From the NCBI RefSeq assembly GCF_035548235.1, contig NZ_DASZTJ010000033.1, forward strand, positions 18,643 to 82,642: a DNA stretch of 64,000 bases, given 5' to 3'. The notes under the pieces are model-generated. The model searched no databases. It saw only the letters and a list, made by a program, of their open reading frames with translations, and was not told where the DNA came from. This document shows, piece after piece, positions 1,858 through 7,435 of the stretch. Numbering within the stretch: position 1 is the first letter of the stretch; each line of letters opens with the position of its first letter. Source of the stretch: Rhodopila sp. Its GTDB lineage: Bacteria > Pseudomonadota > Alphaproteobacteria > Acetobacterales > Acetobacteraceae. The position numbers and the translations under genes are program-made.

Positions 1858-5097
<3,240 letters not shown>

Positions 5098-5144: not shown

Positions 5145-5531
5145 TTAGCGGCGTCGTGCTTCGGCCACGCCCTGGGGGGTGAGTTCCAGGTGCCAATGGC
5201 ATTGCAGCGCGCCCTCCGGCAAGCGGATGGGTTCGCGGATCAGTCCGTCGCGCAGGCAGGCGTCGATGGCATCACGGAACGCATCATAGCCGACCGGCGT
5301 GTCGGTCAGGGCGGCAAAGCGTTCATAACCGGCTTCAACGCTGGGGGCGGTGATGCCGTGACGGAAGCCGACGGCCAGGATCGCCGAACGCGCGGCGTCC
5401 AAACGGTTCGTGTGAGCCGTCCCATCATCGTTGGGCATGTGCGAACTCGCTGCTGGACGGAAAAGGGACCGAACCGGCGACTGCGGCACCACGGACGGTC
5501 TCCTGGCATGATGGATAGCCACGGTGGCCAT
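5145..5531 (-). CDS. Hypothetical protein between carA and carB, possible winged-helix fold (alternative start 5438)
   Basis: ATG 3 nt after the carA stop; helical core followed by LIREP...WHLELTPQG wing-like ending. Confidence 0.6.
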   Translation of the reverse strand: MATVAIHHARRPSVVPQSPVRSLFRPAASSHMPNDDGTAHTNRLDAARSAILAVGFRHGITAPSVEAGYERFAALTDTPVGYDAFRDAIDACLRDGLIREPIRLPEGALQCHWHLELTPQGVAEARRR

Positions 5532-5534
5532 CCA

Positions 5535-6890
5535 TTATGTCCGCTGCTCCATTAGTCCCACGAACCGCTTGAACAGATAGTGGCTGTCCGACGGTCCCGG
5601 ACTGGCCTCCGGGTGGTACTGAACCGAAAACACCGGCCGGTCGATGACCGCGATCCCCTCGTTCGATCCGTCGAACAGCGACACATGTGTCACCTTCGCC
5701 CCTGCCGGCAGCGTATCCGCGTCCACCGCGAAGCCATGGTTCTGGCTGGTGATTTCGACCTTTCCGGTCTCCAGGTCCTTCACGGGCTGGTTGGCGCCCC
5801 GATGGCCCCGGTCCAGCTTGTAGGTCTTCGCCCCCAGCGCCAGGCCCAGCAACTGGTGTCCAAGGCAGATGCCGAATAGCGGAACCCCCGTCTCCAGTAC
5901 GCCGCGGATTGTCGGAACCGCATACTCCCCGGTAGCCGCCGGATCGCCGGGGCCGTTCGACAGGAACACGCCGTCGGGTTTGTGACGCAGGATGTCATCG
6001 GCCGTCGCGGTGGCGGGGACGACGGTGACCCGGCAACCGGCGGTCGCCAGGCAGCGCAGGATGTTGCGCTTGGCGCCGTAATCCACGGCCACGACATGGA
6101 ACCGAGGCTCCGTCTGCCGGCCGAAGCCCTCGGGCCAGGCCCATGTGGTTTCGTCCCAGTCATAAGTCTGGCGGCAGGTAACCTCCTTCGCCAGGTCCAT
6201 CCCCTCCAATCCCGGCCAGGCGGAGGCTTGCGCCTTCAGCGCATCGAGGTCGAAGCGACCGTCGGCGGGGAAGGCCAACACGCCTGTCGGGGCACCACCG
6301 TCGCGGATGCGGACGGTCAGCGCGCGGGTGTCCACCCCGGCGATGCCGGTGATGCCTTGTGACCGGACCCAGGCGTCGAGCGTCTGCATCGCCCGCCAGG
6401 ATGACGGTTCGGTGATGTCCTGCTTCACCACCAGGCCGCGGGCAGCGATGTTGGTCGCCTCGATATCCTGGACGTTGGCGCCTACGTTGCCGATATGCGG
6501 GAAGGTGAACGTGATGATCTGGCCGGCGAAGGACGGATCGGTCAGCGTCTCCTGATATCCGGTCATGCCGGTAGAGAAGCACACTTCGCCAACCGGGGCC
6601 GTTCCCGCCGTATGGACCCCGAACCCGCGTCCCCAGAACACCGACCCGTCGGCCAGTACCAGCACGGCGGTGGCGCCAGCCGGCACACCGTCCACTGCCT
6701 CGGGGGTTTCGCCCGTCATCAGGTCCGCCATTGTCAGCCCCGTGGCGGCGATCACTGCGGGCCAGTGCCGCGACGGGATGGCGCCGGCCTGGCGCCATTT
6801 GCGTACCGCTTCGGTGCCTACGCCAGTAAGTCGAGCGGCTGAGTCGGGACCGCCGAGGCGGTCTATGATAGAGTCGATCGCGTGCGCCAT
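5535..6890 (-). CDS. carA: Carbamoyl-phosphate synthase small subunit with N-terminal Cro-like HTH extension
   Basis: [29 protein letters not shown] catalytic Cys, HPE triad. Start re-called at MAHAIDS (6890), 7 nt after a -10 box. Confidence 0.97.
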
Positions 6891-6896
6891 GACTTG

Positions 6897-6925
6897 ACTA
6901 TATGGGAAGAAACTTCCCAGCTCAA
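6897..6925 (-). promoter_or_regulatory. Predicted sigma70 promoter of carA with a palindromic operator filling the spacer
   Basis: Minus strand TTGAGC (6925-6920), 17-bp spacer TGGGAAGTTTCTTCCCA (perfect 7-3-7 palindrome), TATAGT (6902-6897). Confidence 0.75.
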
Positions 6926-6940: not shown

Positions 6941-6957
6941 ACGGAAGAAATCTCCCG
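6941..6957. promoter_or_regulatory. Second degenerate copy of the 17-bp carA operator
   Basis: ACGGAAGAAATCTCCCG matches TGGGAAGAAACTTCCCA at 12/17 positions, 38 bp away. Confidence 0.55.
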
Positions 6958-6970
6958 GAGGATTCACGCA

Positions 6971-7435
6971 ATGCCAGACACCATCCTGACCGGCGGATGC
7001 CAATGCGGTGCTGTCCGCTATGCCCTGTCCGAAGCTCCGGAGTCGACCGTTTGCCATTGCCGCATGTGCCAAAAGGCCGTCGGCGGACCGTTCGCCGCGT
7101 TCTGCAAGGTGCGTCTCGACCACTTTGCCTGGACGCGTGGCCAGCCGGCCGCGTTCCGCAGCTCCACGGCGGCGGAGCGGCATTTCTGCCGCGACTGCGG
7201 CACGCCGTTGACCTTCCATTACTTGCATGGCGACGCCATCGAGGTGACGACCGGCAGTCTCGATCATCCGGAGACGGTGCCGATCATCCGCAACTTCGGT
7301 GCCGACTCGCGGCTGCCTTGGATCGACCGGCTGATGCCGGGTGCGGTCCCGGATGTGCCGCCCAGCAATCCGGCGCTGGACAGCCGCCAGCATCCCGACC
7401 ACGAAACACTGACCGGCTGGCGGCCGCCTGCCTGA
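6971..7435 (+). CDS. GFA family Zn-binding protein
   Basis: [18 protein letters not shown] and [11 protein letters not shown] motifs; GGAGG SD before ATG 6971. Confidence 0.9.

Follow-up and report, generated by a model that had tools for sequence, protein, structure and literature searches.

A Cro-like DNA-binding domain on the CarA protein of Acetobacteraceae and a candidate operator in its own promoter

Why should a subunit of a metabolic enzyme begin with a DNA-binding domain, and what would such a domain bind? This question is raised by the carA gene in a 64,000-nucleotide stretch of the genome of Rhodopila sp. (NCBI RefSeq assembly GCF_035548235.1, contig NZ_DASZTJ010000033.1, positions 18,643 to 82,642 of the forward strand), the whole of which we refer to as the window. 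CarA is the small subunit of carbamoyl-phosphate synthase (CPSase). Carbamoyl phosphate is needed for the synthesis of arginine as well as of pyrimidines, and the control of its production in E. coli is a textbook multi-factor case. An original prediction, made from the letters of the window, had noted about 57 extra residues ahead of the normal CarA start, read them as a domesticated phage Cro module and proposed that CarA may bind DNA and control its own operon in response to glutamine or assembly with CarB. We found that the extension is a translated helix-turn-helix (HTH) domain carried by CarA almost throughout the family Acetobacteraceae, and that a palindrome conserved alongside it occupies the carA promoter. 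Based on these patterns, we put at roughly 65% the probability that HTH-CarA binds two palindromes as dimers, represses its own leaderless promoter and thereby controls carA-orf128-carB, orf128 being an open reading frame (ORF) for 128 amino acids between the two CPSase genes.

The N-terminal domain of CarA

Residues 5 to 57 of the protein match the NCBIfam model NF046037 ('carph-isopro') from end to end, scoring 76.8 bits when the domain is searched by itself and 72.0 bits within the full protein (cut-off 38). A profile of the domain run against PDB sequences placed N15 Cro, a Cro hybrid (XPH1) and Xfaso-1 Cro at the top and P22 Cro lower. The AlphaFold2 model of the domain, based on a 46-sequence alignment, contains five helices (residues 2-11, 15-22, 26-35, 40-50 and 54-58) with a mean predicted local distance difference test score (pLDDT) of 86.5 and values above 95 in the core. 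Helices 2 and 3 make up the HTH within a five-helix bundle of the Cro/cI type. Foldseek comparison with the PDB yielded 434 repressor, Xfaso-1 Cro, N15 Cro (including its DNA complex 6ON0), P22 c2 and P22 Cro, with probabilities of about 1.0 and template modeling (TM) scores of about 0.65. The best 24 matches were all HTH domains of Cro, cI, c2 or related repressors (TM ca. 0.55-0.67), and superposition on Xfaso-1 Cro gave a root mean square deviation (rmsd) of 1.3 Å at 31% identity. Taken as a group, the all-alpha Cro proteins of P22 (1RZS), N15 (2HIN, 6ON0) and Xfaso-1 (3BD1) have the same fold as the CarA domain (rmsd 1.2-1.5 Å over 47-49 residues, 27-31% identity) and share with it the pattern hhxxFG..xxAxxLGVxxxAVxxW...IP. 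They are free-standing proteins of about 60-70 amino acids, whereas here the fold forms the N-terminus of an enzyme. In a full-length model, HTH and enzyme fold separately and are joined by a linker with a pLDDT of about 54. The residues of the recognition helix are near-invariant across relatives.

Behind the linker, the protein continues as an ordinary CarA. The core starts at about residue 75 and matches TIGR01368 over positions 1-360 of 361 with 450.3 bits (cut-off 307.35). Its translation contains the motifs GICLGHQ and HPE, typical of the catalytic Cys and the catalytic His/Glu of a class-I glutamine amidotransferase (GATase) domain; in a protein alignment, GICLGH shows no variation at its Cys or His. 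No stop codon intervenes between HTH and CarA in the window, and a database protein of 451 amino acids (P0001) is a 100% match to the carA N-terminus. A second carA was not found in this genome, the other matches being GATase-domain paralogues with 27-36% identity. A longer ORF with a TTG start (to position 6971), present in a program-made ORF list, was rejected as the carA gene. In one genome of the same genus (G010:C2, 61270-62626), the carA match is split in two, and a TGA interrupts the frame near residue 105-116; a frameshift, decay into a pseudogene or faulty assembly may be the cause.

Codon alignments of 16 orthologues from the genus (that of the window and 15 others) indicate that the extension is translated and under purifying selection. 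The median ratio of nonsynonymous to synonymous substitution rates (dN/dS) was 0.12 for the HTH (57 codons, dS ca. 1.1), 0.39 for the linker and 0.11-0.14 for three segments of the enzyme, at dS values of about 1.0-1.3. In 16 other genomes of the genus the extension is in frame and free of stop codons, and every locus of the family that we read has an ATG at the start of the HTH. Upstream of this ATG, 29 of 113 related loci have a stop codon in frame at a distance of at most three codons, so that no alternative start further 5' exists there. Gene callers and NCBI annotate such proteins as CarA of about 450 amino acids. An annotation artefact, i.e. an untranslated leader that is open in frame by chance, would account for outgroup CarA proteins lacking the extension and for a published shortening of the ORF in Gluconobacter oxydans (discussed below). 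It is contradicted by the selection pattern across the 57 codons, and given conservation at the protein level across more than 110 genera, the ATG at every locus read, the close upstream stops at 29 of them and the confident fold prediction, we accord it practically no probability.

To survey the distribution of the fusion, we sampled 120 further genera of this GTDB family, with one genome per genus. A carA match was obtained in 113 of them, giving 114 genera together with that of the window, and the HTH was present on carA in 112 of the 114 (in 92 contiguously from residue 1-6 and in 20 as a separate match that mostly shares one open frame with CarA, the linker being longer). In-frame reading of the HTH was possible at 97 loci from other genera and in 16 genomes of the window's own genus. 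Using the first 75 residues as query, 887 proteins of CarA length were retrieved, the named ones including Rhodopila, Acetobacteraceae and Rhodospirillales. Short fragments of such CarA proteins are named in Acetobacter, Novacetimonas and Teichococcus, and the fusion also occurs in Gluconobacter species. CarA carries no HTH in the three outgroup families that were read, and in other outgroup families the carA matches begin after the HTH. Within the family, carA without HTH was seen in two members, G117 (C3, ~520600) and G068 (C1, ~508800; a 1.9-Mb AT-rich genome). Judged from these sequences, the fusion is the normal form of CarA across Acetobacteraceae and not specific to one organism, and arose around the base of the family (NCBI order Acetobacterales) to be retained since. 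This is in agreement with the original prediction as far as the domain is concerned: the NF046037 match, the AlphaFold2 model, the structural and profile searches and dN/dS all identify the extra residues as a real, translated Cro/YdaS-like HTH on an otherwise canonical CarA, and the survey of CarA N-termini found it nearly family-wide.

Palindromes in the carA promoter

On the minus strand, the carA start codon is preceded by TTGAGC-TGGGAAGTTTCTTCCCA-TATAGT-caagtc-ATG (Table 1), so that a perfect palindrome sits between the two promoter hexamers. This geometry puts the first transcribed nucleotide (+1) on the A of the ATG and predicts a leaderless carA mRNA; no Shine-Dalgarno (SD) sequence is present before the ATG in the window. 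An imperfect copy, CGGGAGATTTCTTCCGT, is located further upstream, and paired sites in related loci are mostly 38-40 bp apart. With a relaxed score, a site was found within 200 nucleotides upstream at all 114 fused loci, compared with a background of 0.0055 per 200 nucleotides in this genome. A stricter count, allowing at most one mismatch in ten specified bases, gave a site at 102 of 113 loci and two sites at 69 of them. The consensus is T-GGGAA-RWWWY-TTCCC-A. Its half-site centres are 10 bp apart, a spacing that would be expected if a Cro-type HTH binds as a dimer.

Two promoter layouts could be distinguished. At 82 loci the centre of the proximal site falls between -20 and -24 relative to the ATG, with a TTG just upstream that is 93-96% conserved and TAnnnT just downstream, and an SD-like tetramer is found at only 3 of these 82. 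The nearest site lies further upstream at the other 32 loci, where an SD was present in 17 of the 29 scored. In the examples read among these 32 (Gluconobacter and close relatives), a TTCCCA half-site precedes a TAnnTA-like box by 16-18 nucleotides and thus occupies the -35 position. In the layouts that could be read, the site overlaps the core promoter. These positions also bear on the possibility that HTH-CarA activates transcription, either in a MerR-like manner from the spacer or, in the way of class-I activators, from the distal site with its centre near -59. Activators typically bind near -60, and the -35 hexamer (TTGAGC) is imperfect, but the spacer has the optimal length of 17 nucleotides, as opposed to 19-20 nucleotides in MerR-type promoters, and at the leadered loci read the site overlaps what is probably the -35 box, as is usual for repressors. 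As Cro-type proteins that bind inside core promoters, such as lambda and P22 Cro, are further known to repress, we regard activation as highly unlikely.

Based on a full-matrix position weight matrix (PWM), the carA site is the top site of the 5.27-Mb genome with 31.1 bits, the next best reaching 16.3 bits. Exact matches to GGGAA-N5-TTCCC occur five times in this genome, as chance predicts, and only the copy at carA has an A/T-rich spacer. Five complete related genomes contain 1-4 exact matches each; in three of the five, one match adjoins carA and has an A/T-rich spacer, and the other A/T-rich exact matches in these genomes are isolated copies only. No recurrent second target emerged from the pattern and PWM scan of the Rhodopila genome or from the pattern scan of the five related ones, and the idea of a regulon was dropped for this reason. 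A single target beside the coding sequence of the regulator itself is the signature of an autoregulator.

HTH and site co-occur at 114 of 114 loci, and the three outgroup carA loci that were read have neither. The two family members without HTH represent natural deletion cases: G117 has kept the promoter, but one half-site is decayed (GCGAA...TTCCC, 16.5 bits), and G068 has no site. Further, residue 25, a Gly within an 11-residue segment at the start of the recognition helix, is replaced by Ser or Thr at 19 loci. Mostly CGGAA half-sites (instead of GGGAA) were found at 11 of these 19 loci compared with 3 of the 95 Gly25 loci (Fisher p = 3e-8, uncorrected for relatedness). This co-variation is suggestive and would correspond to perhaps two or three independent lineages.

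Table 1. Coordinates of the carA locus and its promoter elements in the window
Feature	Position	Strand	Remarks
HTH-CarA coding sequence	5535..6890	minus	ATG 6890-6888, stop codon 5535-5537 included, 451 amino acids
Cro-like helix-turn-helix domain, residues 1-57	6720..6890	minus	NCBIfam NF046037 'carph-isopro'
Variable linker, residues 58-74	6669..6719	minus	first codon is an in-frame ATG (Met58, 6717-6719)
CarA N-terminal (CPSase small chain) domain	6279..6662	minus	Pfam PF00988, E 1.8e-47
Class-I glutamine amidotransferase domain (GATase)	5559..6089	minus	Pfam PF00117, E 3e-53
-10 hexamer TATAGT	6897..6902	minus	at -12 to -7 if A of ATG is +1
Proximal operator candidate TGGGAAGTTTCTTCCCA	6903..6919	minus	perfect 17-bp palindrome, exactly the promoter spacer
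-35 hexamer TTGAGC	6920..6925	minus	at -35 to -30 if A of ATG (6890) is +1
Distal operator candidate CGGGAGATTTCTTCCGT	6941..6957	minus	imperfect copy, 38 bp upstream centre to centre
128-amino-acid ORF between carA and carB	5145..5531	minus	
carB (CPSase large subunit)	1858..5097	minus	Pfam CPSase_L_D1/D2/D3 and MGS
Divergent GFA-family gene	6971..7435	plus	Pfam PF04828, E 2.1e-22; shares 80-nucleotide intergenic region with carA

In the wider neighbourhood, carB is probably part of the same operon as carA and is followed by greA on the same strand. The ORF between carA and carB had no Pfam match; in G. oxydans, carB starts 3 nucleotides after carA. On the upstream side, a YqeY-like gene lies beyond the divergent GFA-family gene, and an ORF further upstream in divergent orientation may be dnaG, as assumed from synteny. 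The distal palindrome is located 14 nucleotides from the ATG of the GFA-family gene and could affect this gene as well.

Relatives and origin of the domain

Of 401 alphaproteobacterial genomes sampled, 79 contain a match above the cut-off of NF046037. Most copies form the N-terminus of proteins of about 400-570 amino acids, followed by an acidic or Pro-rich linker and a hydrophobic segment that is probably membrane-spanning. One such protein that was scanned has a C-terminal Mitofilin domain (Pfam E 1.1e-13), and by their sequence features we assign these long proteins as bacterial Mic60 homologues. Mic60/mitofilin-like proteins of many alphaproteobacterial families start with this Cro-like 'carph-isopro' domain (FGGIRPMAAKLGVPVTTVQGWKERGAIP). 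A DNA-binding-type domain is not known to have been described on the bacterial homologue of the crista-organising protein, although no search aimed at such descriptions was made. Promoter palindromes were also looked for upstream of the Mic60-type fusions, where nothing consistent was found.

Other copies of the domain have promoters that resemble the carA arrangement more closely. One is found at the N-terminus of an acyl-CoA carboxyltransferase (G292:C3, ~142760), which by our reading may be of the propionyl-CoA carboxylase beta type (TIGR01117 731 bits, below the cut-off of 998.8) and would be a second metabolic enzyme carrying this HTH module. A TTGACA box and ACGT-containing repeats lie upstream of it. 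Several further copies are small stand-alone proteins of 65-90 amino acids from other Alphaproteobacteria. The stand-alone homologues and the carboxyltransferase fusion mostly have a TTGAC-type -35 box about 35-40 nucleotides before the ATG, with different inverted repeats in between (examples are TACGC-N5-GCGTA, AATTGCA-N3-TGCAATT and ATTCAG-N5-CTGAAT). The mean best repeat arm in this set was 5.07 nucleotides compared with 3.94 in shuffled sequences.

In case of phage genomes, a tblastn search of 50,697 records returned three matches at 38.6% identity, and among PHROGs only phrog_8008 ('DNA binding protein', E 9e-7) was hit. A recent phage origin was rejected as a specific claim on this basis, and the domesticated phage Cro of the original prediction was not borne out, the closest relatives being the chromosomal NF046037 family. 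The module is a chromosomal alphaproteobacterial family within the Cro/cI superfamily. RefSeq names fragments of HTH-bearing CarA 'carph-isopro domain-containing protein'. NF046037 itself is a naming model to which, in the sources read, no function, operator or regulatory role is attached, and we found no paper using the name.

Autoregulation and its alternatives

According to the proposed mechanism, CarA would be bifunctional, combining a normal CPSase glutaminase subunit with a flexible linker and a Cro-type HTH. A dimer of the HTH would recognise T-GGGAA-N5-TTCCC-A, and occupancy of its two copies at carA would block RNA polymerase and so repress carA-orf128-carB (negative autoregulation). 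Transcription would start at or beside the A of the ATG and yield a leaderless mRNA, in which case every transcript from this promoter would encode the HTH. Binding might be modulated by a metabolite, by assembly with CarB, by the oligomeric state of CPSase or by the concentration of CarA alone. The original proposal that CarA binds DNA and controls its own operon gains comparative support from a palindrome that is conserved family-wide, located in the core promoter and unique in the genome, while we infer the binding itself, by this HTH and not another factor, as well as the resulting repression.

A number of observations weigh against this mechanism. For the domain as such, Pfam P22_Cro (PF14549; E 7.9e-5, 22.8 bits) and YdaS (PF15943; E 5.5e-4, 20.1 bits) stay below their gathering thresholds of 30.2 and 30, some orthologues having a precomputed P22_Cro/YdaS hit, and the Foldseek E-values of 0.1-0.5 are weak because the query is small (ca. 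60 residues). The distance of 38-40 bp between operators corresponds to about 3.7 helical turns and would not bring both sites onto the same face of the double helix, as simple cooperative binding would need. The co-variation of residue 25 with the half-site is confounded by relatedness. Finally, the same domain sits on Mic60-like proteins that have no evident promoter palindromes, and its fold is thus no guarantee of autoregulation. This last observation would also fit if the carA palindrome were the site of a separately encoded regulator and the HTH of CarA served nonspecific DNA or nucleoid tethering or contact with another protein, as the domain may do on Mic60-like proteins. We consider such a separate regulator very unlikely, since site and HTH occur together at 114 loci and are both missing in the three outgroups read, and since a genome-unique site is what a locally encoded single-target regulator should have. 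The near-invariant recognition helix, the way in which Ser or Thr at position 25 tracks the outer base of the half-site, and the tendency of unfused homologues to carry distinct palindromes at this place in their promoters further point towards the CarA domain as the binding partner.

Transcript data from G. oxydans do not fit the proposed mechanism either. Differential RNA sequencing of strain 621H (PMC5756330, Tables S4 and S9) provides the only experimental map of transcription start sites (TSS) in the family. It contains a single carA TSS at 339559, i.e. 28 nucleotides downstream of the annotated ATG at 339531 and thus among the codons of the HTH; it is backed by 24 read starts, and its predicted promoter motifs score weakly (2.4 and 2.82). 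The authors moved the carA start to 339600 and thereby shortened the protein from 463 to 440 amino acids, and expression of carA was low in their study (PMC5756330). The promoter that we predict upstream of carA was not detected in this map; it may have been repressed or below threshold in the conditions used, or this clade may employ an internal start. In the near-identical strain NBRC 14819, the annotated ATG is the start of the HTH (MDIDRIIEKAGG...), and two palindromes, TCGGAAAAAACTTCCCA and TGGGAAAAAACTTCCCA, lie upstream, the second being followed by TTATTC after 16 nucleotides. Judged by the NBRC 14819 sequence, the 'correction' moves the start to codon 24, a CTG where the recognition helix begins. 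The corrected start would halve the conserved HTH, and the RefSeq start (463 amino acids) fits the conserved Met of the HTH.

A TSS inside the HTH coding region would fit two isoforms, with long HTH-CarA as a minor and purely regulatory form and most catalytic CarA made without HTH, either by initiation of translation within the linker or by use of an internal promoter. The linker differs in length and sequence between species. It contains a Met in 23 of 45 readable linkers, mostly 9-17 residues before the CarA core and including Met58 in the window, which would offer such a start. The Met position is close to the start of outgroup CarA proteins, and this residue may be a relic of the old start or an alternative start. 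The linkers of the remaining 22 species have no Met, and several of these also have no Val, excluding a GTG start there; the fusion is probably the sole form of CarA in those species. An obligatory internal start was on this account rejected as a general feature. With the G. oxydans TSS being weak (24 reads, poor motifs), we judge two isoforms distinctly unlikely, and they would be an addition to repression by HTH-CarA, not a replacement for it.

A more far-reaching and rather unlikely view holds that the CPSase holoenzyme acts as a sensor, its effector-controlled oligomeric state or assembly with CarB setting how many HTH domains are grouped, and that promoter, operator and HTH form a portable, leaderless and self-regulating cassette grafted onto unrelated alphaproteobacterial genes (those of CarA, an acyl-CoA carboxyltransferase and Mic60). 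An alpha4-beta4 tetramer would carry four HTH domains and thus two dimers for two operators. E. coli CPSase responds to the effectors UMP, IMP and ornithine, of which ornithine and IMP favour the tetramer. This would mean more repression at high demand and counts against the simplest version of a sensor. If the holoenzyme did act in this way, a single protein would take over the work that several distinct regulators share at the carAB promoters of E. coli.

Trigger enzymes, which through a fused DNA-binding domain repress genes of their own pathway, include BirA, PutA and NadR of enterobacteria and the archaeal RbkR (PMC5397151). HTH-CarA has in common with them an N-terminal DNA-binding domain, a palindromic (candidate) operator in its own promoter and an apparent single local target. 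It differs from BirA and PutA in being a subunit of a hetero-oligomeric allosteric enzyme. Its Cro-type five-helix HTH is presumably also unlike the kinds of domain found on BirA or PutA, for both of which control of DNA binding by catalysis or ligand is known. Literature searches for CarA among fusions of enzymes with DNA-binding domains, for CarA combined with HTH and for N-terminal extensions of CarA returned nothing relevant. The fusion as such is already catalogued in the form of the NCBI model and long proteins in databases; the novelty lies in the operator, in the promoter layout and in the regulatory interpretation.

In case of E. coli carAB, PepA (CarP), PyrH, RutR, PurR, IHF and ArgR act at two tandem promoters (PMC6245113, PMC2952853). 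This is the same operon, and the enzymes PepA and PyrH represent a precedent for transcriptional control by enzymes at it. Whereas E. coli uses separate regulators and a CarA without DNA-binding domain, the putative regulator here is contained in CarA and faces one compact promoter with two palindromes. A far simpler device, a self-repressing subunit, seems to be in use throughout the family, to which the acetic acid bacteria of industry (Gluconobacter, Acetobacter and Komagataeibacter) also belong. If this holds true, carA start codons should be 'corrected' only with caution, as the case of G. oxydans illustrates, and the carA locus would provide a compact single-target repressor/operator pair with a predicted leaderless promoter. 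CarA would then join the short list of enzyme-regulator fusions, and its HTH would exemplify a family of Cro-like domains shared by several proteins of Alphaproteobacteria, Mic60 homologues among them.

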